Positions 17,945-56,357 are shown, counted from the first letter of the stretch. The stretch: DNA of 64,000 nt from Bryobacterales bacterium (GCA_963765185.1 CAVXWB010000142.1:1895-65894); one strand, 5' to 3'. Notes: generated by a model not told the origin, from the letters alone. Numbers and translations are program-made.

Positions 17945-17961
17945 TAACTCGGTGACGGAGC

Positions 17962-18357
17962 ATGCTCCCACGATTCAGCTTGGCTGCGCTGCTGTTGCTT
18001 CCCGCGGCTCCGTTGCCGGCGCACCATTCGGCGGCGGCGGAGTTCGACACCTCCAAACCGGTTGTGCTGCACGGTACGGTCACGAAGGTGGCGTGGATGA
18101 ACCCGCATGTCCACATCTGGGTGGATGTCACGGACGCCAACGGGAAGACGACGAATTGGGATTTGGAAAGCGTGGCGCCGAACTATCTCCAGCGTCTGGG
18201 CTGGACCAAGCAGTCTCTGAAGGCCGGCGATATGGTCACCATTCGGGCGTACAAGGCCAAGGACCAGCCCAACCTGGCGAAGACGGATACGATTACTTTG
18301 CCCGACGGCAGGCGCATCACCACGGGCCACGCCGACGATGGCGCAGCCCGGCGTTGA
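17962..18357 (+). CDS. Small His-rich periplasmic protein (DUF6152-like, copy 1)
   Basis: The signal peptide ends '...PLPA|HHSAAAEFD'. 'VTKVAWMNPHVHIWVDV' is present. It is homologous to 49179-49556 and 53960-54337. The DUF number is recalled, not verified. Confidence 0.65.
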   Translation: MLPRFSLAALLLLPAAPLPAHHSAAAEFDTSKPVVLHGTVTKVAWMNPHVHIWVDVTDANGKTTNWDLESVAPNYLQRLGWTKQSLKAGDMVTIRAYKAKDQPNLAKTDTITLPDGRRITTGHADDGAARR

Positions 18358-18445
18358 TCGAATTCAAGATGCCGCATGGGCTGTTGCGTTAAGCTTGGTG
18401 ATGATTTTCGGCGGGAATCGAAATCTCGAAGAGAAGGAGCTCCGA

Positions 18446-19652: not shown

Positions 19653-19686
19653 TTTGCGTAAATGTCAGTCGTATAGAAAGGTGCAC

Positions 19687-24828: not shown

Positions 24829-24962
24829 CTATAAAAAGGAACCCGCACTTCAGCTTATCGAATCTTGGCACGCTGGGTTGCAGGACAAGTCGCGTTTTGC
24901 GCATGCTTTGCGGCTAGTACCCTGGCCTTGACGTGCGCCTCCGTGCATGGTAGTTTCCTCAC

Positions 24963-25718
24963 GTGAGAAACTGTTTGCCTGGTTTGGTCATTTTGTTGGC
25001 TTTGGCCGCCGTGCCGGCGCCGGGTCAGGGAGAAGCAGAAGCGGCCTCGCTCCGCGCCGCCAAGCCGCAGCCGGGTCCAGCCCCCCGCACCGCGGACGGC
25101 AAGCCCGATTTTTCCGGAGTCTGGAGCCCGGAGCACAACTTCATTTACGACATCTCCGTCTCGCTCAAGAAGGGTGAGACGCTGCCTTTGCAGCCCTGGG
25201 CCGCAGATCTGGCCAAGACCCGCATGTCCAAGGACGATCCCGAGGCCAACTGCCTGCCCACTGGAGTGCCTCGCCAGAACCCGTATCCCTGGAGAATCGT
25301 CCAGACTCCCACGCACATCTTTTTCCTCTTCGAGGGCAATATCCACAGCTATCGGCAGATCTTCATGGACGGCCGCAAGCATCCCGCCGATCCCGACCCC
25401 ACCTGGTACGGCGACTCGATCGGCCATTTCGAGGACGACACCCTGGTGATCGATTCCGTCGGCTTCAACGATAAATTCTGGTTCGACTTCGCCGGCCATC
25501 CGCACACCGAGCAATTGCACGTGGTGGAGCGCTTCCGCCGGCCCGATTTGGGCCATCTGGAGTACGAAGCGACCATCACCGATCCGGGCGCCTACACCAA
25601 ACCCTTCACCATGTATGGGCACTCCACCATGGAAGCGGGCGTCGATTTGCAGGAATATATCTGCAACGAGAATAATCAGGACGTGCCGCATATCGTCGGC
25701 AAAGACAACCGTAAGTAA
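24963..25718 (+). CDS. Secreted protein, single-domain member of the family repeated at 44-56 kb
   Basis: Signal peptide plus 'DGKPDFSGVW...NCLPTGVP...DPDPTWYGDSIGHFEDDTLVIDSVGFND...HTEQLHVVERFRRPD...DPGAYTKPF...EYICNENNQD'. It aligns with the C-terminal domains of 49583-50674, 52870-53919 and 54364-55428. Confidence 0.65.
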   Translation: MRNCLPGLVILLALAAVPAPGQGEAEAASLRAAKPQPGPAPRTADGKPDFSGVWSPEHNFIYDISVSLKKGETLPLQPWAADLAKTRMSKDDPEANCLPTGVPRQNPYPWRIVQTPTHIFFLFEGNIHSYRQIFMDGRKHPADPDPTWYGDSIGHFEDDTLVIDSVGFNDKFWFDFAGHPHTEQLHVVERFRRPDLGHLEYEATITDPGAYTKPFTMYGHSTMEAGVDLQEYICNENNQDVPHIVGKDNRK

Positions 25719-25728
25719 ATTGCCCGCG

Positions 25729-25986: not shown

Positions 25987-26226
25987 AGGTGGTTTGGTCC
26001 CGCCGGGCGATTCGGCATCTCGTTAGCCTGCGAGAGCACACCGAAAAGGATTCCGAGCAAAATGCCGCCCTGGTTGCGAGCCGGATTCTCAGTGCTGTCG
26101 AACTGCTCCAAACTCACCCGGAGTCGGGCCGGCCAGGCCGCCCCGTGGGACACGCGAGCTTGGCATGATGGCCTGGAGTTAATTGCGGTCTTCCACGGGC
26201 GCCAGGCGCGGCCGGTCAGGCGATAA
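25983..26226 (+). pseudogene. ParE/RelE-family toxin remnant (internal loss plus frameshift)
   Basis: The N-terminal part 'MKVVWSRRAIRHLVSLREH...HPESGRPGR' stops at 26168. The family C-terminus 'LELIAVFHGRQARP' follows in another frame at 26173-26226. The middle of the fold is missing. Confidence 0.6.
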
Positions 26227-39544: not shown

Positions 39545-39634
39545 GGAGAGATGGCCGAGTGGTTGAAGGCGCACGCTTGGAAAGCGTGTTTAGGGGAAAC
39601 TCTAACGAGGGTTCGAATCCCTCTCTCTCCGCCA
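39545..39634 (+). tRNA. tRNA-Ser(GGA), class II with a long variable arm and encoded CCA
   Basis: Acceptor GGAGAGA/TCTCTCC, anticodon stem CACGC/GCGTG with loop TTGGAAA, long variable arm, T-arm GAGGG-TTCGAAT-CCCTC, discriminator G and CCA. Confidence 0.9.
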
Positions 39635-42512: not shown

Positions 42513-44177
42513 ATGGCGCTCGAAGAATACAACCGGAAGCGCGATTTCACCAAGACGTCCGAACCCAGACCAGGGCGCGTAAAAAGCCGCGAGCAGAAAC
42601 TCTCCTACCTCATCCAGAAACACGACGCGACCCGCCTGCATTACGACTTCCGGCTGGAACTGAACGGAGTTCTGCTTAGCTGGGCCGTCACCAAGGGACC
42701 AAGCCTCGATCCCGCCGACAAGCGGCTGGCCGTTCGCACGGAAGATCATCCGCTTTCCTACGGCAGCTTCGAAGGAACCATCCCCGAGGGCCAATATGGC
42801 GGCGGCCCGGTGATGCTCTGGGATACCGGCTGGTGGGAACCGGAGGGCGATCCCCGCGCGGGCCTGAAAAAGGGCCATCTCAGATTCATTCTCCATGGCG
42901 ATCGATTGAAAGGCCGGTGGAACCTCATCCGCATGCGAAGCGACGGAAAGAAGGAGAACTGGCTGTTGATCAAGGAAGATGACGACCAGGCCAGCCGTGG
43001 CTCCAACAGCGAATTCCTGGAGGGTTTGTCCTTCAGCGTCACGAGCGGACGCTCGATGGAAGAAATAGCCCGCGGCGACAATGCCAAACGTAAAGCCAGG
43101 GCATCGGCGGTGCGCGAGGCCACAACCATTCCTGCGTCGGAAGCGGCGGCCAGGCCGGCAATCAAATCGGCAAAGCCGGGCACTCTTGTCGTCAGCGGCG
43201 TCGCCATTACACATCCCGATCGCGTCATTTCGGAAACCGGCCATGTCACGAAGGGCCAGCTTGCCGAATATTATTCCGCCGTCGCGCCCTTCCTTCTGCC
43301 TCAAATCATCCGGCACCCTCTAAGCCTTCTGCGGTGTCCGTCAGGCATCGGCGGCAAATGCTTCTTTCAGCGCAATCCCGGCAGAGGCCTGGGTGCGGAT
43401 GTAAAGCCGTTCGAATTCAGGCACAAGGGCAAGAAATACGAATACCTCTTTATCGACGACGAGAAAGGACTGTTGGAACTGATCCAGATGAGTGCGATCG
43501 AACTGCACCCCTGGGGCGCACCCGTCAATGCGATCGATTATCCGGATCGCATGATCTTCGATCTCGACCCGGCGCCGGACGTGCCATTCGAGGCGCTCAA
43601 GCTGGCCGCGCAGGATCTGCGCCAGCGTCTGCAGCGCAAGGGGCTCGAATCAACCCTGAAATGCACGGGCGGCAAGGGATTGCACGTCACCGTTCCGCTG
43701 GCCGGCAAGGACAAATGGCCGGCCGTGAAAGCCTTTGCCGGATCGCTGGCCGGGGAGATGGTCGCCGCCGAGCCCGCGGCCTATGTCGCCACCATGAGCA
43801 AGGCAAAACGGACCTCTAAAATCTTCATCGACTACTTCCGCAACGACTATACCGCAACGGCCATCGCAGACTACGGCGTCCGCGCCCGGCCCGGTGCGCC
43901 GGTAGCCCTGCCCCTCGACTGGAAGGAATTGAAGACTCTCAAATCCTCGAGCCAGTTCACGATGAAGGACGTCCTCAAGCGCCTTCGAAACCGGAAACCC
44001 GAATCGGTCTCAAAGAGAACCCAACAGGTTCTCCCTGCTCAATTGCTGACCCAAAAAGAAACCCGTACAAGATCGAAGCCTATCGCGGGCGGCGGCAGTC
44101 CTGAACTTGCGAGCCTCAGCGCCTTCCCCGGCTCGACCCCAAACGGATCTCCGAATTATTTCTTGTCGAACAGTTGA
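42513..44177 (+). CDS. ligD: LigD-type NHEJ protein with 3'-phosphoesterase and polymerase/primase domains and no ligase domain
   Basis: 'EYNRKRDFTKTSEP...QKHDATRLHYDFRLE' is the PE domain. 'ITHPDRV...LLRCPSGI...IELHPW...DLDP...TGGKGLHV' is the polymerase domain. No KxDG adenylation motif was seen. Confidence 0.8.
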   Translation: MALEEYNRKRDFTKTSEPRPGRVKSREQKLSYLIQKHDATRLHYDFRLELNGVLLSWAVTKGPSLDPADKRLAVRTEDHPLSYGSFEGTIPEGQYGGGPVMLWDTGWWEPEGDPRAGLKKGHLRFILHGDRLKGRWNLIRMRSDGKKENWLLIKEDDDQASRGSNSEFLEGLSFSVTSGRSMEEIARGDNAKRKARASAVREATTIPASEAAARPAIKSAKPGTLVVSGVAITHPDRVISETGHVTKGQLAEYYSAVAPFLLPQIIRHPLSLLRCPSGIGGKCFFQRNPGRGLGADVKPFEFRHKGKKYEYLFIDDEKGLLELIQMSAIELHPWGAPVNAIDYPDRMIFDLDPAPDVPFEALKLAAQDLRQRLQRKGLESTLKCTGGKGLHVTVPLAGKDKWPAVKAFAGSLAGEMVAAEPAAYVATMSKAKRTSKIFIDYFRNDYTATAIADYGVRARPGAPVALPLDWKELKTLKSSSQFTMKDVLKRLRNRKPESVSKRTQQVLPAQLLTQKETRTRSKPIAGGGSPELASLSAFPGSTPNGSPNYFLSNS

Positions 44178-45231
44178 TTGTAGTCGCGATTGTTCTCGCA
44201 GACGAATTCGTCGGCCTTAGTCATGTCGGTGCGGAGCTGGAAGACTCGGCTCACCGTCCAGGGCTTCGCAAAAACATGGGGTCCTCCATCGTCGCATCGT
44301 ACTGGAGGGTATTGAAGTCCGGCCGGCGGAAGCGCTCGACGATATGCAGAGCGTCCGTGTGCCGGTAGCCGCTGATCTCAGTTTTGTCGTTGTACCCGAC
44401 TGAGTCCACCACCAGCGTATCGCCCTCCCAATGACCGATCGAATCGCCCATCCACGTGGGGTCTGGATCTACCGGATGCGGGCCTCCGTCCGTGGGGATG
44501 ATGCGAAAAGTACCTGGGAACCCGTTCAGAATCGCCAGGACATGTGCGCCCTGAACGAACTCAGAATGATAAGGCGCGGCCACGCCCTGCGGCCCGGCCA
44601 ACGGCATGCAATCCGAATATTGGCCCGTATCGTCGGGGCCGCGGACCACCTTGAACTTCTCCGCGCCGGGCTTCTAGGGCGGTTTTCCGCTGGCCGGCAT
44701 TCGCGCCGGCCCGCCGCGCCCGGCCGCCGCCTCGCCCAAACTCCCGACAAGTCGGGTTTGCCATCCGCTGTACGAGGCGTTGCCTTCTCGGTTCACTTCC
44801 CAGGCAGCTATGCCGAACCGGAGTGGTACCCGCAACGTTCACCGTCACCGTGCGTGTCAACTTCTGATCGTTCGGCCCGAGCACCGTCAATGTATAGGTC
44901 GTCGTCCTGGAGGGGAGCCACCTTCACGACTCCGCGCGCAGCGACGCGACCGAGATCCGGGTCAATCGTAATCCCAGTGGGGTCTTCCGTCGACCACGTG
45001 AGGGTCGCCGATTGGCCCGGCGGATCGAACGCGGCTCGGCTCCTGAAATCCACGTTTCGCGCGGCAACGCCTTCGGGCAAAATTGTACGGGTTTCCTTTG
45101 CCGGCCGAGACGATCCCCGATTGAGGCGTTCCAGCGGGCGCCTGGGCCGTCGTGGCAGGCGCCTCAGCCGCCGCCAGCCCTATCGAGCATGCCGCCAAAA
45201 CCGCGCCGAATATACTTCTTGCGATTGCCAT
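44157..45231 (-). pseudogene. Decayed fourth copy of the Ig-like plus C-domain secreted protein family
   Basis: It has an RBS, ATG 45231 and a signal peptide. Homologous pieces then lie in at least four different frames: 'SATLTWSTEDPTGITIDPDLGRV', 'TVLGPNDQKLTRTVTVNVAGT', 'KFKVVRGPDDTGQYSDCMP...HWEGDTLVVDSVGYND' and 'DEFVCENNRDY'. There is an in-frame TAG at 44674-44676. Confidence 0.7.
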
Positions 45232-45300
45232 TCTATTTGCCTCCTTGCCTATTCGTCCGCCACGGGTCCGACCGGAGCTTCAGTTCCTTGACAATTAATT

Positions 45301-48300
45301 TTAGAACGTGAAGCGGGCGATCAGCGTACCCGTGCGGCCCGTAAGATAAGGCGCCGTGGCCGTGGTCGGCTGGCTCCCAGGAGTGGCGAAGGTGTTGATG
45401 ACTCCGAAGCCGCTTGAATTGACCCCCGCGGTCTTTGTCACGGCGTTCTGCGGGTTCGTCGCGATTGGGGCCGGCATGAGGGTCCGGTTGAATATATTGA
45501 CGAACTCGGCTCGGATGTGGAAGTTCATTCGTTCCTTGATCCGGAAGTTGCGTCCAATGTTCGCATTCTCGCTCGGAGTGCGTGGAGCGCGGAAATTGCT
45601 ATAGAGGGTTGAGACCGCCGGACAGGTTGCGTTGGTGGGGCAGGCAGCCCAGGCTGCCGGATTCAGAACCTGCGTGGTGCCCGGATTGTAACTGTGGATA
45701 TTGTTGATGTCGACGTTGTACAAAGGCTGGCCGGGAACCAGTGTGTCTTCGCTGGGCAGGAAATTCGCCGTGGGGCTGGCTGGAGGCGTCAGAAACAAGC
45801 CGCTTTGGTAGAGCGCGTACCCCCCGATCTCCCAGCCTCTGGTAATTTGGTTTTCCCAGTTGTTCAGGAAGGAAGCCTTCGGAGTGGTGTAGACGAGGTT
45901 GAAGGTCAGCGCCCGCGGAGGAATATTTTGCAGCGCCCACGGATTGCCCGCAGGGTTGAAGAAGTCCTGCCGGGTGGGCCGGGTGAAGCCCTTCGCCCAG
46001 GTGAAAGCGCCGCCAGCCTGAAGGCCATGCGAGAGCCGCTTCGTCGCCTTCATCTGTAATGCGTCGTACTTGGAATCGCCGGTGGCGGATCCCGTCGGCT
46101 CAAGCGCTCCGAACTGTGGGAAGGGGACCAGAACGCCCGACAGCGCGGTACTGGTGGGAAACCCTGCATATGGCAAAATGCTGCTGATACCGACGGAAGC
46201 CAGTTTCTGAACTACCGCGGTGCTGCTGATCGAGTCGGCCAACAGGACGCGATCGGTATTGTTGCTATAAGTTGAGTTGGCGCACACTCCGCCCCCGGTG
46301 GAGCAGGGACCGGTCCCGGGGTAAGGATACAAACCATATTGTGCGTAAGTGGCCGGAGAGATTTGGCTCATCTCCCCGAGTGGGCCCGACAGCCAAGCTA
46401 CGCGATTGCCCACGTACGCCGCCTCCATGACGAAGTTCCTGGTGATCTCGCGCTGGATGCCGGCGCTGAACTGGTTTTCCCGGGGCGGCCGGTTTTGATT
46501 CGCGTCGGGCATCACAGGCCTGGTCCCGGTTCCGGACCCAACGGTCCCCACCACCGGATAGATGTTGTTGTTGGAAACTGGCCATGTTGGCGGTACGATT
46601 GCGCCCGGCGTCTCGATGTTGACGAATTGCGATGCCAGGGGAACGTAGGAGGGGCTGTTGGCGGTCACCGGATAAATTCCGTTGGAACTGACAATGCCGC
46701 CGGCGGTCCCGAACACTTCCGTGTACTGGATTCCCCATCCGCCGCGAAATACCGTCTTGGAATCGATCTGATAGGCGATGCCGAGCCGCGGCCCGATCGC
46801 GTAAGGATAACTGGGCTGGTAGAATTGGCAGCCGCAGGTGTTGGCATAGATCGTCGCGCCCGGATGACCTCCGGCATCGGCGTTCGCCAAAGTCTCATCG
46901 AACTGCCCCAAACGCCCGTATTGCTCATGGGGTTGCGTGGCCAAATCATACCGCAGGCCGTAATCCAGGGTGAGCTTACGGGTCACCTTCCAGGAATCTT
47001 GAAGGAACAGCGCCCATTGCTGATACCCCATGCGGTAATCGTATGGCGCGCTCTGCGTAGTGGAATTATAGTCGCCCAGCAGGAAACTGGCGAAGCCGAA
47101 ACCCGTGCTAAATCCGTTGAGGCTATTGGCCGGAGTGAAGGGAGCCGAGGTCGCATTCGTGCCGGTGGCGAGCGTTACGCCGGCGTATTCTTGGATGGGA
47201 GCTCCCTGGAAGTAGACTTCCGCGCCGAGTTTGTAGGTGTGCTTGCCATGGACCCACGTCACGTTGGCGTTATATGTCGGCTTGTTGTCGTGGTAGAGAC
47301 TCTGAATTTGACCGAGCGTCCCGATGTTTTCCATGCCGCCCGCGCCCGTGCAGGGCCAGCCTCCGGTGCACATCCCCGTAATGGAGGGGAACTGGCGGTT
47401 CTGTACAAAGCCACTGAGCCCAAACTGTGAGGGATTAAAACTTGTGAACGCCGCCTTGTCGCTGAAACTGGTGTAATAGTAGCCCGCGCCAAGGTGCAAC
47501 AGGATGGTCGGCGTCAGGGTGCGGTCGTAGTTCAGCCGTTCCGTCCAGCCCTCAATGCAGTTGCACCGGTACTCGCCGATCTCAAACGGCAGGCCATCCG
47601 CGCCTTGCGGAGCGCCTATGCCCCCGGAGACATGGTTCACGAGATTGGTCTCCTGATAATAGAAAGACAACTTGTCCTTGCTGGAGATATTATGGTCGAT
47701 CTTAACTGACGGTATGACCGTGTAACGATTGCTTGGGACGGAGCCGAGGTAATTCCCGGTGAGATTGGAGTTCTGCGCCGTGACACCCAGTGTTTGGAAC
47801 AGACTTAGAAGCTTCACCGTGACTGGATCGAAGCGGGTCAGCGGAATCATGTTGTTCTGGAACGGTGTCGCGTATCCCTGGCCAGCCAGGGAACCAGAGG
47901 TAGCTACCTGTCGCGTGAGGGGATCGTAGATCTCATTCGCGAACATTACGGCGCCGTTGGGATCCTTTTGAACGGCCGGAACACCCAACGCCGTAGTCGG
48001 AATCCCGAGGCCGGCGCAAAGACTGCAAGTCCCGTTCGCTGAAATCGCACTGAAATTGCCCTGGAGATAAGCGGGCGCCGGCACTGTATCGCTATTGAGA
48101 ATCTGCGAGGTCTCAAGGTACTCCTCATAGTTAAAGAAGAAGAAGCTCCTGTTGTGCCCGTTATAGATTTTGGGGATGGTGATGGGACCGCCCAGGGTAC
48201 CGCCGAAATCGTTGCGCCGGTTCCTCTGCCGGACCTTTCCCACGCCCGACGTGTTCACACTGAAAGGATCGCCGGCATTCAGATCTTCGTTGACAAAGTA

Positions 48301-49077
48301 GTCGTAGCCGCTGCCATGATATTGGTTGGTACCGGACTTCATGGTGAAGTTCATTAACACGTTTCCCGTGGTTCCGAATTCAGGAGCGTAGTTGCTGGTC
48401 TGGAACGCAACTTCCTGAATCGCGTCCACGCCGGGCTGGGCCATCGATTCATAAGCCAGCGCGTGAGGCGTTGCGTCCTGGCCTTCGATGCGGATCGATG
48501 CCTGCGAGGTCTGGCCGTTGAAATTGCCCAGGCTGTAGCCGGGCGTGTTGGCGTTAGTGTAACCGGAAGAGCCAGGCAGCGTCAGCACTACGTTGAATGG
48601 ATTACGGATGGCGTCGGGGCCGTTGTTTGCGGCCCCAATGCCCAGTAGAGGAAGATTGTCCATTTGCGTCAGCGTGACGTTGTGCGTCAACTCTGCGGTC
48701 TCGGTCTTCAGCAGTGAAGCTTCGGCGGTGACGGTTACCGACTCGGTGGCGTTGCCTATTGCAGACCGATGTCTTCTTTCAGGACCTGCGTAGCCGCAAC
48801 GGCCAGATTCGTGTGGGTGAAGGTCTTGAATCCCTGCACCTTAACCGTGACGACATAGGTGCCGACCGGCAAATCCGAGATCGTATAATTCCCGGCGGTA
48901 CTCGACGCCCCAGTATAATTCAATCCCGTTTGCCGTGTTTTTGGCTTCTACGGTCGCTCCGGCGACGACAGCTCGCGTAGAGTCGGTAATGGTGCCAGTG
49001 ATGGTTGCGTTGCCGCCTTGGCCGAATGCCGCCGCGCTGACGAGGAATAGACAGACGAGGCCTAACCCTACTCGCAT
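45301..49077 (-). pseudogene. TonB-dependent receptor with a carboxypeptidase-regulatory-like N-terminus and two compensating frameshifts
   Basis: ATG 49077 gives the signal peptide and 'ITGTITDSTRAVVAGATVEAKNTANG'. 'NYTGASSTAGNYTISDLPVGTYVVTVKVQGFKTFTHTNLAVAATQVLKEDIGLQ' is in another frame. 'IGNATESVTVTAEASLLKTE...' plus the 1129-aa barrel ORF, ending in the typical C-terminal 'ARFTF', return to the original frame. Confidence 0.8.
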
Positions 49078-49178
49078 AAACTCGCTCCCCTTTTTTTTAA
49101 AACAACCTCAGCTTCCGAGACTAACCCAGACTGTGCGCCTATCGACCAGCGCACAAATATCATCCTGCCCCTCAAGCG

Positions 49179-49556
49179 TTATGACTTGATGGTGCGGCCA
49201 TCGCCCAGTTTCATGAGCGAACTGATCATGGCATGGTCGCCGCTCTTGGCTTTTCCGCCCGTGCAACTAATGACATCGCCTTCCTTCACCGTGGAGTGCG
49301 TCCACCCATAGGACTTCAGGTGGTTCAGGCTCATCATTTCCACGTCCCAATGCTCGATCTCACCCTTCTCGTTTTTGACATCCAGGTAGATGTGCGCATG
49401 CGGATTGGTCCAGTCGAACTTCGTGACCGTGCCCGTAACGGTGACCGGGTTGGCCATGTCGTACATGGCGGTTGAATGATGCGCGAACATCGGCGGAGTC
49501 ATCAGCAGCAGACCGGCGAAAAGCGCCAAAGCAATCAATTGCAATCTCATCTTCAT
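49179..49556 (-). CDS. Small His-rich periplasmic protein (DUF6152-like, copy 2)
   Basis: 'MKMRLQLIALALFAGLLLMTPPMFA|HHSTAMYD...VTKFDWTNPHAHIYLDV'. It is nearly identical to 53960-54337. Confidence 0.7.
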   Translation of the reverse strand: MKMRLQLIALALFAGLLLMTPPMFAHHSTAMYDMANPVTVTGTVTKFDWTNPHAHIYLDVKNEKGEIEHWDVEMMSLNHLKSYGWTHSTVKEGDVISCTGGKAKSGDHAMISSLMKLGDGRTIKS

Positions 49557-50600
49557 TCCAAAAACCTCCAAATCGAGAGTTCCTATTTCTTAAAATAGAC
49601 CGTGTAGTCGCGGTTGTTCTCGCAGACGAATTCGTCCACCTTGGCCAGATCCGTGCGCAGCGCGAAAGTCCGGTTCACCGCAAATGGCCGCTCGAAGACA
49701 TTGGGATCTTCGATCACCGCCTGATACTGCAAACTGCCGAACTCGGGACGGCTGAAGCGTTCCACGATGTGCAGCGCTTCGGTGTGTTTATAGCCGTTGA
49801 TTTCCGTCTTGTCGTTGAAGCCAACGGTGTCCACCACCAGGGTGTCACCCTCCCAGTGGGCCACCGAATCTCCCATCCAAGTGGGGTCTGGATCTTGCGG
49901 ATGAACGCCGTCGATCGGGATGGTGCGGAAGGTTCCCGGATACTCATAAAGGATCGCCAGACTGTGTGCGCTTTGTACCAATTGGAACTGATAGGGAACA
50001 CCAAAGGCGCCGGGCCCGGCCACCGGCATGCAGTCGGAATACTGCCCCGTGTCGTCGGGACCACGAACGACCTTGAATTTCTCCGCGCCCGCCTTTAACG
50101 TCGGCGTGGTCGGAAGGCTCCCTGAAGAATCCGCCGCAGCAGCGGCAACTGGCGCGGCTCCCGCTCGGCCGCCTCTACCGCCGCGGCCACCTCCTCCGCC
50201 ACCTCCAAAGTTGTAAACTCCTGAGAGATCCGGCTTGCCGGCCATCCTGGGGACTTCCTTTTTCGCGGACACGGCAGGCGCATTCGCACCGACGGCTACT
50301 GTTCCGGCGACATTGACTGTGATGGAGCGGGTTAGGGCGCCATCCGCCCCAGTGATGGTTAGCGTGTAGGTGGTGGTCGCCGCCGGAGTGACTTTAGTCG
50401 TTCCCCGGGGCGTAACCCGGCCCACGCCCTGATCGATGTCTACGCCATTGGGATTCTCGGTAGCCCAGGTCAGAAGAGCCGATTCCCCCGGCTTCAAGTT
50501 AGCGGGCTCCGCCGTAAAGTTCATGATCCGGGCCGGGGGCCGAACTCGCTGCTGAATCTGGCCCGAGGACCCGCGGCCTCCGGCATCCTGAGCCGGTGGC
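49179..50600. repeat. Direct segmental duplication, copy 1 (pairs with 53960-55350)
   Basis: By-eye alignment shows only scattered substitutions and one Gly-linker indel across the small-protein gene plus most of the Ig/C-domain gene. The boundaries are approximate. Confidence 0.75.
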
Positions 50601-50674
50601 GGGGGGACTTGGGCTACCAACGGTAACCACAGCGCCCCGAGCAGCGTGGCGATCACTCGGTTTTTCGTAACCAC
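49583..50674 (-). CDS. Secreted Ig-like plus conserved C-domain protein (copy A)
   Basis: It has a signal peptide, the Ig-like 'LLTWATENPNGVDIDQGVGRVTPRGTTKVTPAATTTYTLT', a Gly-rich linker and the C-domain 'SDCMPVAGP...DPDPTWMGDSVAHWEGDTLVVDTVGFND...HTEALHIVERF...DEFVCENNRDY'. Confidence 0.7.
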   Translation of the reverse strand: MVTKNRVIATLLGALWLPLVAQVPPPPAQDAGGRGSSGQIQQRVRPPARIMNFTAEPANLKPGESALLTWATENPNGVDIDQGVGRVTPRGTTKVTPAATTTYTLTITGADGALTRSITVNVAGTVAVGANAPAVSAKKEVPRMAGKPDLSGVYNFGGGGGGGRGGRGGRAGAAPVAAAAADSSGSLPTTPTLKAGAEKFKVVRGPDDTGQYSDCMPVAGPGAFGVPYQFQLVQSAHSLAILYEYPGTFRTIPIDGVHPQDPDPTWMGDSVAHWEGDTLVVDTVGFNDKTEINGYKHTEALHIVERFSRPEFGSLQYQAVIEDPNVFERPFAVNRTFALRTDLAKVDEFVCENNRDYTVYFKK

Positions 50675-50736
50675 CTCCCGCCCTTTGCTAACCTTAGAAG
50701 CCTGTGGTAGTTTAACGCTACGTTTCAGGACTTGGG

Positions 50737-50764
50737 TTGATAAACCTTATCAAACGAATTGATA
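50737..50764. promoter_or_regulatory. Operator-like array of TTGATA(A)/T(T)ATCAA half-sites upstream of copy A
   Basis: 'TTGATAAaccTTATCAAacgaaTTGATA' lies 63-90 nt upstream of the 50674 start. The same TATCAA-N5-TTGATA core occurs at 55508-55525. Confidence 0.35.
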
Positions 50765-50788
50765 CGACCAAGATCGGGTCGTGGGCTA

Positions 50789-51790
50789 TCACGCGTTCGC
50801 GGTGTCAGGCCGCATTTCGGAGTGTTGCTTCTCCGGCGCCACCATCGGGGAAAGTGCCGCAACCTTGGCGTTCGCAGGAGAAGCAAGGTTCTCTGTGTGT
50901 TCTAGAAACAGGTCCGCCATGATGCTCCTCAACCATCTGTTCGCGCAATCGTTGCTGTAACGCTCGTGCCAATGCTGCGTGATGAAATACGCCGGCATTT
51001 CGAATGGAAGTTCGAACATCTTGATATCCGCGACGCTGGCCAAGTGTTGTCCAAGCTGCGCGGGAATAACCGCCAGAAAGTCCATCGTGGTGATGATGGA
51101 AGTGATACCCAGAAAGCTCGGCACTGTCAGACCGATCCTTCGCTTGATGTTCTTCTGCTCCAGTGTCTTTCCGACGATGCCGTGTCCTGTTCCGGAAGTC
51201 GCTATTTCAAGGTGAGTCTCACTCTGGAACTGCTCCAAGGTCAATTTGTCCCGCACCCTCGGGTGATCGCCGCGAACCGCACAAATGAAGCGATCTTTGA
51301 ATAGTCTTTGTCGGCAAAACCCGCCGCCCATCGGCATGATGAACCCTACCGCCAGATCCGCTTCGCCGGATTCGAGGAGCCTGGGGGTATTGTTCGACAT
51401 CCTTGTGAGCTCGACCCGCAACAAGGGGGCAACCCGCTGAAACCGCCGCATCAGCTTCGGAAGCAAGGTCACCTGGGCGATATCGGTGGAATGGATATGG
51501 AAGACGCGATCCGCGCTGATCGGCAGAAAGCTCGCATGGTGTTCGAGTACCGACTGTAGAATTTCTTCGGCTCTCTTAAGGTGGCCGATGATTTCGGCTC
51601 CATAAGGCGTCGCTTCCATCCCCGTTGAGGTCCTTACGAAGAGTGGATCGTGAAAGTGATCGCGGAGCTTGGCCAAAGTCATGCTAACCGTGGACTGGCT
51701 CAATCCGAGGCGCTTGGCGGTCTTTGAGACGCTTCGCGTCTTTTGGAGAACGCTGACGACGCCCAGAAGTTTCAAGTCGATGTTAGGCAT
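50789..51790 (-). CDS. LysR-family transcriptional regulator
   Basis: 'IDLKLLGVVSVLQKTRSVSKTAKRLGLSQSTVSMTLAKLRDHFHDPLFVR' is the LysR HTH, followed by a substrate-binding domain of LysR length. The start is taken at MPNIDL. Confidence 0.8.
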   Translation of the reverse strand: MPNIDLKLLGVVSVLQKTRSVSKTAKRLGLSQSTVSMTLAKLRDHFHDPLFVRTSTGMEATPYGAEIIGHLKRAEEILQSVLEHHASFLPISADRVFHIHSTDIAQVTLLPKLMRRFQRVAPLLRVELTRMSNNTPRLLESGEADLAVGFIMPMGGGFCRQRLFKDRFICAVRGDHPRVRDKLTLEQFQSETHLEIATSGTGHGIVGKTLEQKNIKRRIGLTVPSFLGITSIITTMDFLAVIPAQLGQHLASVADIKMFELPFEMPAYFITQHWHERYSNDCANRWLRSIMADLFLEHTENLASPANAKVAALSPMVAPEKQHSEMRPDTANA

Positions 51791-51890
51791 CTCGAGGTAC
51801 GCCTCATGCAAAGTACCCGCTGGATGCCCGACCGGTCATGGTGTTCGACAGCATTGTCGCCCCCGATCCAACACTATATACTACAAGCTG

Positions 51891-52370
51891 CTACACGTAC
51901 GGAATGCCTTTCCCCGCGGCCCCCACCAAGGTCCAAATTGCAATCGACAAGATGGCGGCGAACTTGGCTTTCCGAGCGGTCGTATCGCCCGCGATAACCC
52001 ACCTGCGTTGGATCGTGAGCTGAGATGCGATTCCCAACAGGATCAGGCCCATCTTGATCGGAAACGAAATGCTTTCAAAACATTTCATCGGTTCCGAAAA
52101 CGCCATCGGAATCCCGGAGGCGATCAGCACGCCGATGCTTGCCAGCATCCACGGCTCCATCTGGCGCGCCAGCTGTGCGGCCGGGACATACCGTTTGCCC
52201 ACCCCGAATACACTCAGGTTGACGATCAGCACGCTCCCCAGCAGCACCGCCAACGCCAGCAGATGAAAGGTCTCGATGAGGGGGAATGCCCAGATCGTGT
52301 CGCGCACGGTGGTCCCCAGCCAGGTATTGCCGCACCATTCGAAATAAGGCAGGAAAGATTCGCCTAGCAT
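51891..52370 (-). CDS. Small 4-TM membrane protein (DUF6644-like family, member 4)
   Basis: It has 'WAFPLIETFHLLALAVLLG' and the C-terminal 'IWTLVGAAGKGIPY'. The motif is shared with three neighbours. The DUF number is recalled, not verified. Confidence 0.55.
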   Translation of the reverse strand: MLGESFLPYFEWCGNTWLGTTVRDTIWAFPLIETFHLLALAVLLGSVLIVNLSVFGVGKRYVPAAQLARQMEPWMLASIGVLIASGIPMAFSEPMKCFESISFPIKMGLILLGIASQLTIQRRWVIAGDTTARKAKFAAILSIAIWTLVGAAGKGIPYV

Positions 52371-52377
52371 AAGCTAC

Positions 52378-52866
52378 TCAAGCGTAGGCGAGCGCCCGTC
52401 CCATGGCGACGACGCCGATCCAAACGAGTAGCGAGGATGCGCCCGCCAGCCTCGCGCGCCATGGCGTCGGGGAGCCATGATCCCACGCATCCACGCCGCG
52501 AAATACGGTGTGGTGAAAGATCAGCGCGTTCACCCCCGCCACACCCAGCAGCACGACTTTTGCGCGGAAGAAAGGGCTGTTGTAACACTTCACGGCTTCG
52601 GAGGCGAACAGCACCACTCCGCTCGAAATCATGACGGCGAAGCCGGTCCATATCCACGGCAGAAACTGCGCCGCCACCTGGGAAACGGGCCGCCGCCGCA
52701 TTACCAGGCCGAGCAGGCGCAAATCCAGAATCGCGGCGGGCCAAAGCATCACGCTCAGGGCCAGAGAGTGAATGCTCTCGATCACGGGGAACTGCCAGGC
52801 GGAATGCTTTACGCCGCTCGCCAACGGCAGGTTCTGAATCCACTCGCAAACGCTGAGGACCGACAC
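52378..52866 (-). CDS. Small 4-TM membrane protein (same family, member 3)
   Basis: It has 'WQFPVIESIHSLALSV' and the C-terminal 'VWIGVVAMGRALAY'. Confidence 0.55.
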   Translation of the reverse strand: MSVLSVCEWIQNLPLASGVKHSAWQFPVIESIHSLALSVMLWPAAILDLRLLGLVMRRRPVSQVAAQFLPWIWTGFAVMISSGVVLFASEAVKCYNSPFFRAKVVLLGVAGVNALIFHHTVFRGVDAWDHGSPTPWRARLAGASSLLVWIGVVAMGRALAYA

Positions 52867-52869
52867 TGG

Positions 52870-53919
52870 TTATTTTTTAGCGTCCTTTCCGAACAATTTG
52901 GTGTAGTCCGGGTTGTTTTCGCACACGAATTCGTCCACTCTTTCTTCGTCCGGACGGGCCGGAAGAACGCGCGTGGGAAGCGTCCAAGGGCTCTGAAACA
53001 CGTTGGGATCGTCCACGGTGACGTCGTACTGAAGGCCATTCGCCACGCGCTTGTACCGCTCCACCACGTGCAAAGCCTCGGTGTGCATGTAACCGCTCAC
53101 CTCGGTCTTGTCGTTGAACCCGATCGAATCCACCACCAGCGTGTCCCCATCCCAGCGACCCACGGCTTCTCCCATCCATGTGGGATCCGGGTCCGGCCCA
53201 TGCGGGCGGCCATCGAGCGGGATGAATCGGAACGTGTTGGGATACTCGAAGATCATCACCAGGAAATTCTGTTTCTGAACGATCTGGAACGGGTAAGGAG
53301 TCACGAAGGTCTGCGGGATTCCGAGGGGGACGCAGTCGGTGCCTAAAGTGGTCCTGCCTCCGACAAAATTTCCGCTGCGGTCGACTTTGAATTTCTCCGC
53401 TCCTGGCTTCAGCACGGGCGGCATGAGATCGCGGACGCCGGCCGACCCGTAAACTCCCGTCAGATCGGGCTTGCCATCCGGCATGCGCGGGTCTTTGGAA
53501 GCGACCGGTGGGGCCTTGATCGCCCCCGCCGGAGCCGTGCCGGAGACGGTCACCGTAACGGATTGTGTGAGAGCGGTGTTATTCGGTCCGCCCACCTTCA
53601 ACGTATAAACGGTGGTCGCGGTGGGAAAGACCTGCCGGCTGCCGCGGGCGGCCACGCGGCCCACCTCTTGATCGATCGTCACGCCGCTTGGATTCTCCGT
53701 GGCCCAGATGAGAAGAACCGGCTGCCCGCTTTGGACGGATTCGGGTTTTGCCGCGAAGCTGACAATCCGCGCGGCCGGTACCACGCGCGCGGGCCGCGGC
53801 GCCGCCGTTTGGCCGGCCACCGGCGCTCCACTGGGGTTCTGAGGCGTGGAACTGGACTGCGCCCAAACGGGTGCGAAGACAACGCAAAAAACCACACCGA
53901 CACGGCGAATGCTGGCCAC
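52870..53919 (-). CDS. Secreted Ig-like plus conserved C-domain protein (copy B, divergent)
   Basis: GGAGG plus GTG 53919 gives the signal peptide 'VASIRRVGVVFCVVFAPVWA'. The domain order matches copy A: 'LLIWATENPSGVTIDQEVGRV', 'DCVPLGIP', 'DPDPTWMGEAVGRWDGDTLVVDSIGFND' and 'DEFVCENNPDY'. Confidence 0.7.
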   Translation of the reverse strand: MASIRRVGVVFCVVFAPVWAQSSSTPQNPSGAPVAGQTAAPRPARVVPAARIVSFAAKPESVQSGQPVLLIWATENPSGVTIDQEVGRVAARGSRQVFPTATTVYTLKVGGPNNTALTQSVTVTVSGTAPAGAIKAPPVASKDPRMPDGKPDLTGVYGSAGVRDLMPPVLKPGAEKFKVDRSGNFVGGRTTLGTDCVPLGIPQTFVTPYPFQIVQKQNFLVMIFEYPNTFRFIPLDGRPHGPDPDPTWMGEAVGRWDGDTLVVDSIGFNDKTEVSGYMHTEALHVVERYKRVANGLQYDVTVDDPNVFQSPWTLPTRVLPARPDEERVDEFVCENNPDYTKLFGKDAKK

Positions 53920-53959
53920 GTGGCACCTCCCTCGGAAACTAGCTGTGCAGAACGGACGT

Positions 53960-54337
53960 TTATGACTTAATGGTGCGGCCATCGCCCAGTTTCATGACCG
54001 AACTGATCATGGCATGGTCGCCACTCTTGGCTTTTCCACCCGTGCAACTGATAACATCGCCCTCCTTCACTGTGGAGTGCGTCCACCCATAGGACTTCAG
54101 GTGGTTCAGGCTCATCATCTCCACGTCCCAATGTTCGATCTCACCCTTCTCGTTTTTGACGTCCAGGTAGATGTGCGCATGGGGATTGGTCCAGTCGAAC
54201 TTCGTGACCGTGCCCGTAACGGTGACCGGGTTGGCCATGTCGTACATGGCGGTTGAATGATGCGCGAAGATCGGCGGAGTCATCAGCAGCAGACCGGCGA
54301 AAAGCGCCAAAGCAATCAATTGTAATCTTATTTTCAT
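53960..54337 (-). CDS. Small His-rich periplasmic protein (DUF6152-like, copy 3)
   Basis: 'MKIRLQLIALALFAGLLLMTPPIFA|HHSTAMYD...'. It has only a few substitutions relative to 49179-49556. Confidence 0.7.
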   Translation of the reverse strand: MKIRLQLIALALFAGLLLMTPPIFAHHSTAMYDMANPVTVTGTVTKFDWTNPHAHIYLDVKNEKGEIEHWDVEMMSLNHLKSYGWTHSTVKEGDVISCTGGKAKSGDHAMISSVMKLGDGRTIKS

Positions 54338-55350
54338 TCTAAAATCCTTCGAATCGGGAGTTCCTACTTCTTAAAATAGACCGTATAATCGCGGTTGTTC
54401 TCGCAGACGAATTCGTCCACCTTGGCGAGATCCGAGCGCAGCCCGAAAGTCCGGTTCACTGCAAATGGCCGCTCGAAGACGTTGGGATCTTCGATCACCG
54501 CCTGATACTGCAAACTGTCGAAATTGGGACGGCTGAAGCGTTCCACGATGTGCAGCGCTTCGGTGTGTTTATAGCCGTTGATTTCCGTCTTGTCGTTGAA
54601 GCCAACGCTGTCCACCACCAAGGTGTCGCCCTCCCAATGGGCCACCGAATCTCCCATCCATGTGGGGTCGGGATCTTGCGGATGAACACCGTCGATTGGG
54701 ATGGTGCGGAAGGTTCCCGGATACTCATAAAGGATCGCCAGACTGTGTGTGTTTAGCACCAGTTGGAACTGATAGGGAACGCTAAAAGCGCCGGGCCCGG
54801 CCACCGGCATGCAGTCGGAATACTGTCCCGTGTCGTCGGGGCCACGCACGATCTTGAATTTCTCCGCGCCCGCCTTTAACGTCGGCGTGGTCGGAAGGGC
54901 TCCCGGAGCCTGCGCCGCAGCGGCGCCTCCGCGGCCGCCACCCCTGCCGCCGCCGCCACTTCCGTAAACTCCCGAGAGATCCGGCTTACCATTGGCCAGC
55001 CTGGGGACTTCCTTTTTCGCCGGCGCGGCAGGCGTATTCGCACTGGCGGCTACTGTTCCGGCGACATTGACTGTGATGGAACGCGTTAGCGGGCCATCCG
55101 GCCCACCGATGGTTAGCGTGTATGTCGTGGTCGCCATAGGAGTGACTTTAATTGTCCCCCTGGGCGTAACCCGGCCCACCCCTTGATCGATGCCGACGCT
55201 ATTGGGATTCTCGGTAGCCCAGGTCAGAAGAGCCGATTCCCCCGGCTTCAAGTTAGCGGGCTCCGCCGCAAAGCTCATGATCCGGGCCGGCGGCCGGATT
55301 CGCTGTTGAATCTGCCCCGAGGGCCCGCGACCTCCGGTATCCGGAGCCGG
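53960..55350. repeat. Direct segmental duplication, copy 2 (pairs with 49179-50600)
   Basis: See copy 1. The orientation is the same and the copies are about 4.8 kb apart. Confidence 0.75.
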
Positions 55351-55428
55351 TGGTTGAGGCGCTTGAGCCCCTAATCGGAAACAGGCGATCAGAATCGCGG
55401 CTATCTGGGCTTGAGTGCAGTGTTTCAT
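54364..55428 (-). CDS. Secreted Ig-like plus conserved C-domain protein (copy C)
   Basis: ATG 55428 gives 'MKHCTQAQIAAILIACFRLGAQA'. The rest is nearly identical to copy A. Confidence 0.7.
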   Translation of the reverse strand: MKHCTQAQIAAILIACFRLGAQAPQPPAPDTGGRGPSGQIQQRIRPPARIMSFAAEPANLKPGESALLTWATENPNSVGIDQGVGRVTPRGTIKVTPMATTTYTLTIGGPDGPLTRSITVNVAGTVAASANTPAAPAKKEVPRLANGKPDLSGVYGSGGGGRGGGRGGAAAAQAPGALPTTPTLKAGAEKFKIVRGPDDTGQYSDCMPVAGPGAFSVPYQFQLVLNTHSLAILYEYPGTFRTIPIDGVHPQDPDPTWMGDSVAHWEGDTLVVDSVGFNDKTEINGYKHTEALHIVERFSRPNFDSLQYQAVIEDPNVFERPFAVNRTFGLRSDLAKVDEFVCENNRDYTVYFKK

Positions 55429-55507
55429 CAGGTCACCGTAGTGGATCGACGCAGCAGGGGGCCATGCATCGAACAGCGTATCACTAAATATGGTGGAGGG
55501 CATCCCC

Positions 55508-55534
55508 TATCAAGCACATTGATAATCTCTATCA
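55508..55534. promoter_or_regulatory. Operator-like array of TATCAA/TTGATAA half-sites upstream of copy C
   Basis: 'TATCAAgcacaTTGATAAtctcTATCA' lies 80-105 nt upstream of the 55428 start, outside the duplicated segment. Confidence 0.35.
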
Positions 55535-55557
55535 TCGGGGCTCAGTCTGCTCAGCGT

Positions 55558-55956
55558 TCAGAAGAAGGCAATGCCGCGCGCCGCCAACAGCACGCCGGCC
55601 CACAGGGTCAACGTCAGAGGAGTGGCAATCTTCGAGCGCACTTGACTCGTCGCCGCCAGCATGACCAGCAATAGCATCTTCACGCGAAACGATTGACTGC
55701 CGGCACAAAGCAGCGGCTCGTCCGCGAATAGCAGTGCGCCCGTCACAAGCATGACCGCCCCACCGGTCCATAGAATGGCAGGCCGCGGACGCCCCTCTCC
55801 GTTGCTTCGGTAGAGCGACGAGAGTAATACAGCGCCGCCAAACCATGCCAGACCGAGCACGTGCAGCCCGCCGATCACCGGATAAGCCCATGTCGAGCCC
55901 GCCAGGACCGCGCTAAACGCCGTCGAATGGACCCACTGAGCGAGAGCTAGCAGCAT
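55558..55956 (-). CDS. Small 4-TM membrane protein (same family, member 2)
   Basis: ATG 55956 lies 2 nt after the upstream stop. It has 'WAYPVIGGLHVLGLAW' and the C-terminal 'LWAGVLLAARGIAFF'. Confidence 0.55.
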   Translation of the reverse strand: MLLALAQWVHSTAFSAVLAGSTWAYPVIGGLHVLGLAWFGGAVLLSSLYRSNGEGRPRPAILWTGGAVMLVTGALLFADEPLLCAGSQSFRVKMLLLVMLAATSQVRSKIATPLTLTLWAGVLLAARGIAFF

Positions 55957-55958
55957 AT

Positions 55959-56357
55959 TCAGATGTCGAAATCCGCGATAGCCCGCGCCGCCAGCACCAC
56001 GCCTGTCCACAGCACCAGGGATACAATCGCGATCGCCTTATGCCTTCGAGGCACGAAATATGAGATTAGCGCCAGCACTGCCAGCGCCATCTTCACACCA
56101 AACGCTGGGTTGAGCCGGTAACGTTCCCAATCGGCGAACCACATCAAAGCGCCGGTCGCCAGAAGGATCGCGAGCCCGCTTTGCGCCCACGGCTTAAAGA
56201 TTCGATCAAGCTCTTCACTCGTCTGAGGCGCGATGGCCGCCCCGAGCCTGCGCAGGTCCGTAAAGAGGATCGTACCAGCCAGCAACGCGACGCCTGATAA
56301 ATGCGCCGCTTCAATCACCGGAAATGCCCAGGAGTTCTTCAGCGGAACCATCCACAT
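55959..56357 (-). CDS. Small 4-TM membrane protein (same family, member 1)
   Basis: AAGGAG plus ATG 56357. It has 'WAFPVIEAAHLSGVALL' and the C-terminal 'LWTGVVLAARAIADF'. Confidence 0.55.
   Translation of the reverse strand: MWMVPLKNSWAFPVIEAAHLSGVALLAGTILFTDLRRLGAAIAPQTSEELDRIFKPWAQSGLAILLATGALMWFADWERYRLNPAFGVKMALAVLALISYFVPRRHKAIAIVSLVLWTGVVLAARAIADFDI

Follow-up and report, generated by a model that had tools for sequence, protein, structure and literature searches.

At positions 44157-56357, on the minus strand, of a 64,000-nucleotide stretch of DNA from a Bryobacterales bacterium (GCA_963765185.1 CAVXWB010000142.1:1895-65894; this whole stretch is referred to below as the window, with positions counted from its first letter), there is a cluster of twelve elements that represents a real and widely conserved bacterial cell-envelope gene module. 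The core of this module consists of a secreted protein bearing what is here called the C-domain, a small secreted protein of the DUF6152 family and, in a portion of loci, a pair of four-transmembrane (4-TM) proteins of the DUF6644 family. The TonB-dependent receptor and the regulator that complete the cluster are accessories to this core, as the receptor is facultative across loci. The full content of the cluster, comprising two DUF6644 pairs, two DUF6152 genes, three intact genes that combine an immunoglobulin-like (Ig-like) domain with the C-domain, a decayed further copy, a LysR-family regulator and the receptor, was recovered by open reading frame (ORF) listing and hidden Markov model (HMM) scans, in agreement with a preliminary description of the sequence that had placed all of these genes in this interval on the minus strand. 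The thirteen elements counted in that description are reached only when the receptor, which is split, is taken twice. The family names DUF6152 and DUF6644, which it had offered, are correct by Pfam (PF19649 at 99 bits; PF20349 at 58.1, 54.9 and 28.3 bits), and alignments reproduced the motifs it had given for the membrane proteins and the small proteins.

The co-clustering and amplification of the three families, first noted in this one sequence, extend to other genomes whether the C-domain or DUF6644 is used as the seed, the co-clustering being far above chance expectation; the lack of co-occurrence elsewhere that the preliminary description had named as its refutation was not found. A set of 80 loci was picked from GTDB species genomes by a C-domain peptide pattern alone and was then profile-searched for the other families. 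DUF6152 was present in 50 of these 80 C-seeded loci, with 59 of the 66 DUF6152 genes directly adjoining a C-domain gene and 63 of the 147 C-domain genes having a DUF6152 neighbour on the same strand, and DUF6644 was present in nine, where its genes formed adjacent pairs without exception (30/30 ORFs), as had been claimed for the window. A reciprocal set of 80 metagenome loci was seeded by DUF6644 alone, from a five-sequence alignment; among the 30 of these that were at least 5 kb long, 27 contained DUF6152 and/or C-domain genes, usually in the order C-domain, DUF6152, DUF6644, DUF6644, with DUF6152 directly 5' of the pair. A fuller order of C-domain, DUF6152, C-domain, DUF6644, DUF6644 was found in all four long-contig contexts of close homologues, with a receptor adjoining in three. 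The adjacency was seen in Acidobacteriota, Alphaproteobacteria and Gammaproteobacteria, from either C-domain or DUF6644 seeds. In one locus from the family Rariloculaceae (Gammaproteobacteria; L012, related loci being cited by such numbers), the two secreted components are fused in a single gene (L012:17322-18554, plus strand) encoding a signal peptide, a DUF6152 domain (AHHS...WRNPH) and a C-domain; this gene adjoins a classical Plug+barrel TonB-dependent receptor and has a DUF6644 pair 3 kb away. Plasmids also carry the families: NZ_CP011453.2 of Croceibacterium atlanticum (L165) has two DUF6152 genes, a C-domain gene, a TonB-dependent receptor and a MarR regulator, flanked by two G8-domain proteins, and NZ_CP103870.1 of Novosphingobium humi (L166) has two DUF6644 genes divergent from a GH39-like gene, together with a C-domain gene, a DUF6152 gene and a TetR regulator, and a beta-oxidation cluster nearby.

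Within the window, the cluster begins in transcription order with a DUF6644-type pair of the short subtype. The first gene of the pair (55959..56357, minus strand as throughout the cluster; 132 amino acids (aa); TM1 sequence WAFPVIEAAH) matches PF20349 at 28.3 bits, DUF2214 at E 8e-5 and the family profile at E 4e-43, and the second (55558..55956; 132 aa from an ATG at 55956) follows after a 2-nt gap. The second gene has no Pfam match at the 27-bit cut-off that applies to both PF20349 and PF19649, leaving three of the four 4-TM genes of the cluster above it, and was recovered by the iterated family profile (E 3.6e-36) with the invariant TM1 histidine aligned; an orthologous pair is present in the syntenic locus L001, on an 8.65-Mb contig. 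There follow protein C (54364..55503; 379 aa; C-domain profile E 3.5e-77), in which an Ig-like domain, a Gly-rich linker and a calycin-like C-domain succeed one another, and DUF6152 copy b (53960..54337; 125 aa; PF19649 at 99.4 bits; predicted mature N-terminus HHS). Protein B (52870..53982; C-domain profile E 1.8e-77), a secreted protein likewise combining an Ig-like domain with a calycin-like C-domain, is a divergent paralogue with 50% identity to protein A, and occupies the second C-domain slot of the conserved cassette. That cassette ends with a DUF6644 pair of the long subtype (52378..52866, 162 aa, PF20349 at 58.1 bits; 51891..52370, 159 aa, 54.9 bits), and intergenic gaps inside the cassettes range from -23 to 54 nt. 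Downstream of the pair are the LysR-family regulator (50789..51811; HTH_1, PF00126, at 55.8 bits and LysR_substrate, PF03466, at 74.4 bits), which is outside the conserved core and for which the closest NCBIfam model is BsrA, below its cut-off, then protein A (49583..50674; 363 aa), with the same secreted Ig-like and C-domain architecture, and DUF6152 copy a (49179..49571; PF19649 at 99.5 bits). Proteins A and C share 85% identity and the two DUF6152 proteins 98%. At the nucleotide level the two gene pairs are 90-96% identical (90% for protein A against 54994-55293, 96% for the DUF6152-a copy), the genes for protein A and DUF6152-a being a recent duplicate of those for protein C and DUF6152-b. 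Relative to L001, from which the LysR gene is absent, this duplicate and the LysR gene constitute an insertion; the order protein B, DUF6644, DUF6644, LysR is reproduced in the independent assemblies L171-L175. The closest homologues bear names that indicate Bryobacteraceae (Acidobacteriota).

The C-domain family comprises 9,728 representatives at 50% identity that match the profile at E <= 1e-3, and has no Pfam model. Proteins A, B and C gave no Pfam, NCBIfam or PDB sequence match, a Pfam scan of 65 diverse members at E values up to 10 gave no consistent family, and a profile search of PDB chains gave no sequence match. In the AlphaFold2 (AF2) model of protein A, a confident Ig domain at residues 49-122 is followed by a disordered linker at 158-184 and a beta-barrel at about 190-340 with a predicted local distance difference test score (pLDDT) of about 90. 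Foldseek searches with this full-length model, Ig domain included, returned FABP5, CRABP2, P2 and NanoLuc with probabilities of 0.8-1.0, TM-scores of only about 0.5 to the target and E values of 0.02-0.05, as well as Ig matches. The C-domain can therefore be read, with moderate confidence, as a calycin/FABP-like ligand barrel, with no sequence membership in a known lipocalin or FABP family by the Pfam scan of the 65 members or the PDB profile search. The linker of protein A, like its equivalent in protein C, is a Gly/Arg-rich low-complexity segment (GGGGGGRGGRGGRAG...) predicted to be disordered, and its DNA is repeated among the paralogues.

The earlier interpretation of the C-domain as a metal-binding domain with invariant Cys, His and Met is not borne out by its wider conservation. 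Across 395 wide-family sequences, only the two Cys are near-invariant (99% and 98%), and they probably form a disulfide for this reason; conservation is 81% and 77% for the two His of 'HTE.LH', 46% for the Met, and 96% and 91% for the 'ER' Glu and Arg. The domain occurs alone (about 250-290 aa), in tandem, or after Ig-like or CarboxypepD_reg-like domains. Most barrel proteins have an ordinary signal peptide, a lipobox-like N-terminus being present in 10 of 128. There are six C-domain copies in the window and up to eight or more per 20 kb in related loci, a heavy paralogue expansion that fits a substrate-diversified family.

The AF2 model of DUF6152 (pLDDT 88) has an OB-fold, and its top Foldseek matches are all OB-folds (LysRS anticodon-binding domains, SSB/PriB and Stn1); no PDB sequence match was found for either DUF6152 or DUF6644 by single-sequence or profile searches. 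Of 78 DUF6152 sequences from several phyla, 76 have a mature N-terminus of the form A|HH and 77 have the NPH His of W.NPH. The histidine signature first described for the small proteins is thus upheld in both of these parts, but not in the second His of 'NPH.H', which is not conserved in the wider family. Cleavage before the His-His pair is expected because the Ala at -1 is invariant. As far as is known, exported bacterial proteins whose mature form begins with His nearly always have a histidine-brace copper site there, as in CopC, YcnI, PmoB and the lytic polysaccharide monooxygenases (LPMOs), and the DUF6152 sequence has the N-terminal His and further conserved His of the CopC-type brace. 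The protein is not the CopC beta-sandwich, given the OB-fold of its model, and has no CopC Pfam match. DUF6152 probably binds metal through its first histidine, and we infer that the N-terminal His-His and the W.NPH His form a transition-metal site of the histidine-brace type, most likely for copper. Like CusF and CcmE, DUF6152 is a small exported OB-fold protein whose canonical binding face carries conserved His and Trp. Unlike them, it lacks the Met ligands of CusF and the C-terminal His motif of CcmE, and neither of these chaperones, which were not among its top 50 Foldseek matches, uses the N-terminus.

The DUF6644 proteins have four transmembrane helices with an invariant H33 in TM1, K103 where TM3 begins on its periplasmic side and, within the outer half of TM4, W143, all three being present in the second long-subtype protein of the cluster. 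Lys and Arg counts of 3.3 and 3.2 for loops 1 and 3, against 1.4, 1.2 and 0.9 for the N-tail, loop 2 and C-tail, indicate by the positive-inside rule an N-out/C-out topology, which places the His, Lys and Trp in the outer, periplasmic leaflet; the single invariant TM1 His per subunit noted at the outset is thus confirmed and located. The two members of each pair are distinct subtypes in a consistent order, which suggests that the pair is a heterodimer. Weak Pfam matches among 30 DUF6644 members were to DUF2214 (10/30), CopD (5/30), SirB (2/30) and UPF0093, the HemJ family (2/30), those to CopD (best E 0.0026) and UPF0093 (PF03653; best E 0.03) being below threshold; the DUF6644 proteins of the window match neither CopD (PF05425) nor PF03653. 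Comparison by hhalign with YebZ, Cupriavidus metallidurans CopD and PcoD, whole and as halves, gave E values of 0.2-0.7, and as this is not significant DUF6644 was not assigned to CopD. A CopD-type arrangement, with a single chain of about eight TM helices beside or fused to CopC, is not the case here either, there being two 4-TM genes, a DUF6152 neighbour and no CopC. HemJ has a conserved TM1 His, and UPF0093 presumably shares a Pfam clan with CopD and DUF2214. HemJ (PgdH2) is a dimeric b-type haem membrane protein (PMC13564367). It resembles DUF6644 in being a small multi-TM protein and differs in being a homo-oligomer that acts on protoporphyrinogen without secreted partners, the DUF6644 matches to it being far below threshold. 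We infer a His-ligated cofactor at the DUF6644 subunit interface, most likely one b-haem as in this remote relative; the original suggestion of haem or metal ligated between the 4-TM subunits fits the paired invariant His. In two loci alone (L033:2579-3559 and L053:2912-4039, both on the plus strand), the second membrane gene is a fusion of another 4-TM module, with a weak DUF2231 match and the sequence HLHLLLNHFP, to DUF6644.

The TonB-dependent receptor (45301..49077) is of the CarboxypepD_reg plus OMP_b-brl_4 type, matching PF25183 (OMP_b-brl_4) at 459 bits and PF00593 at E 1.5e-5 along with CarboxypepD_reg pieces; a plug domain was not detected by Pfam. It aligns end to end, at 83% identity, with an intact 1244-aa orthologue in L001, with residues 46-106 in another frame, and is interrupted by two compensating frameshifts near 48941 and 48759 and by an in-frame stop inside the CarboxypepD_reg domain, which is split over two frames. 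The adjoining Ig-like plus C-domain gene D (44157..45231), which had been called a pseudogene, is indeed decayed: tblastn pieces against its intact L001 orthologue lie in frames -2, -3, -2 and -1 at 66-78% identity, with at least three frameshifts. Exact look-up of the truncated products of the frameshifted receptor found no independent assembly on record. The frameshifts in the receptor and copy D reflect either a decaying end of the cluster or a locally poor assembly, the rest of the cluster being intact. Of the related loci, 8 of 59 C-seeded loci and 3 of 10 DUF6644-seeded loci of at least 12 kb have a receptor no more than 500 bp from a core gene, and receptor subfamilies differ between phyla. 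The view that the receptor is the importer of the system is not supported, given this facultative occurrence and the frameshifts in the window. On the opposite strand, a LigD-type gene (42513-44177, plus strand), with 3'-phosphoesterase and primase-polymerase domains and no ligase domain in the ORF, converges on copy D with a 3' overlap of about 20 nt.

To sample the genomic context of the module, HMM scans were run on a random 146 of the 239 neighbours that share a strand with a core gene and lie no more than two genes from it. The commonest neighbour families were pyrroloquinoline quinone (PQQ) dehydrogenases (4-5 of the 146), metallo-beta-lactamase-fold proteins, receptors, CytoC_RC-type cytochromes (four), tannase/feruloyl esterase, SMP-30 lactonase, zinc alcohol dehydrogenase and LysR, with GH39-like proteins and major facilitator superfamily (MFS) transporters as other catabolic neighbours. 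Regulators beside the module were of the LysR, GntR, TetR and MarR families, and neither regulators of copper or iron nor P-type ATPases or Cus-type genes turned up among the neighbours scanned. Copper as the imported substrate, the obvious guess of the preliminary description, is not backed by this company of PQQ dehydrogenases, cytochromes c, esterases, lactonases and LysR/TetR/MarR/GntR regulators, in which copper and iron homeostasis genes are lacking. Of its label 'uptake or redox system', the redox half suits the module no less well than the uptake half. When 512 neighbouring ORFs were clustered by BLAST, no further near-universal partner family emerged; the dihaem cytochromes and the PQQ dehydrogenases, though enriched, were confined to a minority of loci. 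The former are a family of c-type cytochromes of about 410-440 aa, in which a CytoC_RC-like N-terminal part with two CxxCH motifs precedes a C-terminal part that weakly resembles DUF6544 (for example L047:7815-9083 on the plus strand and L047:6496-7869, L139:8482-9801, L151:1468-2754 and L156:8485-9771 on the minus strand). The 15 such ORFs are spread over 12 of the 164 related loci and mostly lie no further than about 1.7 kb from a core gene; in three loci the gene converges on a DUF6644 pair with a gap of 8-11 bp, and there is none in the window. This dihaem cytochrome may be a fourth, facultative partner.

The reading of the module that is tentatively favoured is that of a periplasmic metal/haem redox relay acting on organic ligands held by the barrel proteins. 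Sec-exported calycin/FABP-like barrels, in this cluster with an Ig-like domain on a flexible Gly-rich tether, would hold an organic ligand, and cleavage of the DUF6152 signal peptide would free the His-His N-terminus that may form a metal site with the W.NPH His. The DUF6644 heterodimer, with one His/Lys/Trp set per subunit, would bind b-haem at its interface and exchange electrons with the quinone pool on one side and with the metal centre of DUF6152 on the other, and this centre, docked on or fused to a barrel, would oxidise or reduce the barrel-bound substrate. Where present, the TonB-dependent receptor would bring the substrate in, with local catabolic enzymes and a small-molecule regulator (LysR here) completing the locus. 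By analogy, the module appears to resemble envelope relays already described, in which a gate in the outer membrane is combined with carriers in the periplasm and a small membrane partner that bears His. SdhC and SdhD hold one haem with one His ligand per subunit, and MsrQ is paired with MsrP and the cytochrome b561 YceJ with lipocalin-like YceI. The module would share with these membrane cytochrome-b anchors two small subunits that each offer a His and a soluble periplasmic partner, YceI also being a lipocalin-like barrel, but there is no sequence relationship and the soluble partners belong to unrelated families. By the tests run, the module lies outside the CopC, CopD, HemJ, CusF, LPMO and SusD families.

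Several points weigh against this relay. One haem alone cannot carry electrons across the membrane, and most C-domain–DUF6152 pairs have no local DUF6644 pair; as only 9 of the 80 C-seeded loci have one, the membrane link would need to act in trans. We know of no OB-fold protein with a histidine brace, DUF6152 has no Cys ligand of the kind used by type-1, electron-carrier copper proteins, and the conserved C-domain residues (Glu, Arg, Asp and the Cys pair) show no catalytic or ligand chemistry. In addition, gene calls in the related loci were heuristic and neighbour enrichment was judged against assumed background frequencies.

A more specific proposal, distinctly unlikely at present, is that the module contains the first OB-fold histidine-brace copper enzyme, in which DUF6152, seated on a barrel or fused with it and reduced via a b-haem between the DUF6644 subunits, oxidises small hydrophobic or aromatic periplasmic compounds. 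Electrons would come from quinol, or from the associated dihaem cytochromes and PQQ dehydrogenases. The parallel here is with LPMOs served by haem-b or PQQ-enzyme donors, which like the module involve a multi-copy secreted protein with His-1 and a second conserved His, and PQQ dehydrogenases or cytochromes nearby. Unlike LPMOs, which have an Ig-like sandwich, DUF6152 has an OB-fold, there are no carbohydrate-binding modules, and the partner barrel suggests small hydrophobic ligands. If the proposal were true, the DUF6152 oxidase would be a bacterial, membrane-wired counterpart of the partnership between LPMO and cellobiose dehydrogenase, and thousands of barrel paralogues would give it substrate range in soil Acidobacteriota, sphingomonads and marine oligotrophs.

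The main rival to the redox relay, possible if doubtful, is a relay for the acquisition of copper or another metal with CopC/CopD-like logic. The receptor would import copper or a chelate, DUF6152 would capture Cu(II) by means of an N-terminal histidine brace in the manner of CopC, and the DUF6644 heterodimer, as a counterpart of 8-TM CopD split into two 4-TM chains, would import the metal or deliver it to cuproenzymes of the membrane or periplasm, with the barrels as adaptors. CopC–CopD systems include copABCD/pcoABCD, E. coli YobA–YebZ–YebY and B. subtilis YcnI–YcnJ. Like the module, they combine a periplasmic protein that begins, once mature, with His and an adjacent polytopic membrane protein that bears His. 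Also encoded in cop operons are a component of the outer membrane, a multicopper oxidase and, in some cases, a third periplasmic protein that is small and disulfide-containing. Consistent with such a relay are the invariant mature N-terminal His of DUF6152, the weak CopD matches in five of 30 DUF6644 members together with a precomputed PF05425 match on one close homologue (P0198), the DUF6152 gene that directly follows a multicopper oxidase in the window as CopC follows CopA, and a receptor adjacent to the module in a subset of loci from three phyla or classes. A further parallel is the E. coli AZY operon, in which a CopC and a CopD are accompanied by another small, disulfide-containing protein of the periplasm whose role is unclear (PMC8689200). 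However, the DUF6152 OB-fold differs from the CopC beta-sandwich and two 4-TM proteins stand in place of one 8-TM protein, for which the profile comparison with YebZ, CopD and PcoD remained at E 0.2-0.7. CopC–CopD fusions are common, whereas no DUF6152–DUF6644 fusion was seen. A cation channel would not be expected to have an invariant Lys along its presumed path, and the orthologue of the oxidase has no DUF6152 neighbour. Unlike CopC–CopD, the module is massively multi-copy; DUF6152, and the C-domain most of all, occur in very high numbers, which sets them apart from known metal chaperones. The 146 scanned neighbours included neither regulators of copper or iron nor P-type ATPases or Cus-type genes, the regulators beside the module being of the organic-effector type.

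Those same regulators would suit a non-redox system for the capture and passage of hydrophobic or aromatic nutrients, an unlikely reading in which the barrels, in the periplasm or secreted, bind nutrients that TonB-dependent receptors bring in, much as SusD or solute-binding proteins do, DUF6152 is a structural or docking partner, and the DUF6644 pair serves as a permease or docking site of the inner membrane. The calycin/FABP-like fold is in keeping with it, as are the catabolic neighbours (tannase, GH39-like proteins, lactonase, dehydrogenases and MFS transporters), and nutrient-binding families show a similar expansion of paralogues and similar accessory domains to the Ig-like or CarboxypepD_reg-like ones at the N-terminus here. 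SusC/SusD-type loci are comparable in having a CarboxypepD_reg receptor, expanded binding-protein genes, variable catabolic enzymes and a local regulator. Unlike these loci, the module has no SusD homologue, its receptor is found in a minority of loci, and its barrels are mostly not lipoproteins, with the lipobox-like N-terminus confined to the 10 of 128 noted above. Passage of nutrients also leaves unexplained the conserved His-His and NPH His of DUF6152 and the single invariant His/Lys/Trp set of DUF6644, and eight TM helices almost without conserved polar residues make a poor transporter candidate.

Handling of haem or another tetrapyrrole is quite improbable. In such a system the receptor would import haem, the barrels and the OB-fold protein would bind it in the periplasm, and the DUF6644 pair would hold or pass it by His ligation, Trp stacking and a Lys–propionate contact. 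CcmE is an OB-fold haem chaperone and CcmC/CcmF-type proteins handle haem at the membrane; an OB-fold protein with essential His residues and a membrane partner with periplasm-proximal His and Trp mirror the CcmE–CcmC system, and the remote link of DUF6644 to the haem protein HemJ and the roughly 80% conservation of two barrel His point the same way. On the other hand, no haem-binding device is known that uses a free N-terminal His, haem uptake would need far fewer copies, and there is no haem oxygenase, ABC haem permease or Fur-type signal. A Fur-like site with 14 of 19 matches does occur at 55515-55533 (CACATTGATAATCTCTATC), in the 54-bp spacer upstream of protein C; such sites arise at a mean of about 0.17 per window in shuffled sequence, and since this one is absent from the orthologous spacers of L001 and L085 it was treated as a chance occurrence. 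That there is no system at all, and that expanded paralogues have accumulated by chance in one acidobacterial genome, can hardly be credited: the three families are all multi-copy in these genomes, the cluster is partly a recent duplication and two of its members are apparently decayed, but the same adjacency recurs in Acidobacteriota and in Alpha- and Gammaproteobacteria from both C-domain and DUF6644 seeds, DUF6152 and the C-domain are fused in one gene, and the cassette gaps are only -23 to 54 nt.

All three core families are without a characterised member, the barrel domain lacking even a Pfam model despite its approximately 9,700 representatives, and full-text literature searches found no paper naming DUF6152 or DUF6644. 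The module is frequent among the dominant organisms of soil, peat and some marine communities, which rely on TonB-dependent uptake and whose periplasmic biochemistry is little known. Whether it proves to be a novel copper route or a novel redox module of the periplasm, it would bring a new class of component to envelope biology. The N-terminal His-His on an OB-fold and the membrane pair with one His per subunit yield sharp and cheaply testable predictions of a metal site and of a haem or metal site, respectively, and the presence of the module in the cultured strains Novosphingobium humi G5 and Croceibacterium atlanticum 26DY36 makes genetics and biochemistry feasible.

Scans for regulatory elements added little: at Rfam gathering thresholds no riboswitch or leader was found in the cluster, the sole match being a tRNA at 39545-39631, and sigma-70 and terminator scans were at or below shuffled expectation and hence uninformative. 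Outside the cluster, the window encodes a stand-alone C-domain protein without an Ig domain (24963..25718, plus strand; C-domain profile E 8.9e-94; no Pfam match), which is antisense to a longer, apparently spurious ORF (24855-26153, minus strand), and a remote C-domain relative (1735-2559, plus strand; E 3e-9). A third DUF6152 copy (17962..18357, plus strand; family profile E 9.8e-50; mature N-terminus HHS) starts 18 bp 3' of a three-domain multicopper oxidase with a twin-arginine leader (16514..17944, plus strand; Cu-oxidase, Cu-oxidase_2 and Cu-oxidase_3). The two genes form part of a same-strand run (16514-20424, plus strand) that continues with a PF00756 'putative esterase' (18666-19652) and an unassigned, secreted-looking protein of 256 aa (19654-20424). 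The small-protein copy that had been reported to follow the oxidase is therefore present, but the pairing is not kept at L024, where a close orthologue of the oxidase has no DUF6152 gene downstream, and the adjacency was accordingly taken as a single case. In L024 the place after the oxidase orthologue is taken by a 507-aa ORF that, on inspection by eye, looks like a Mg-chelatase/ComM-like ATPase.

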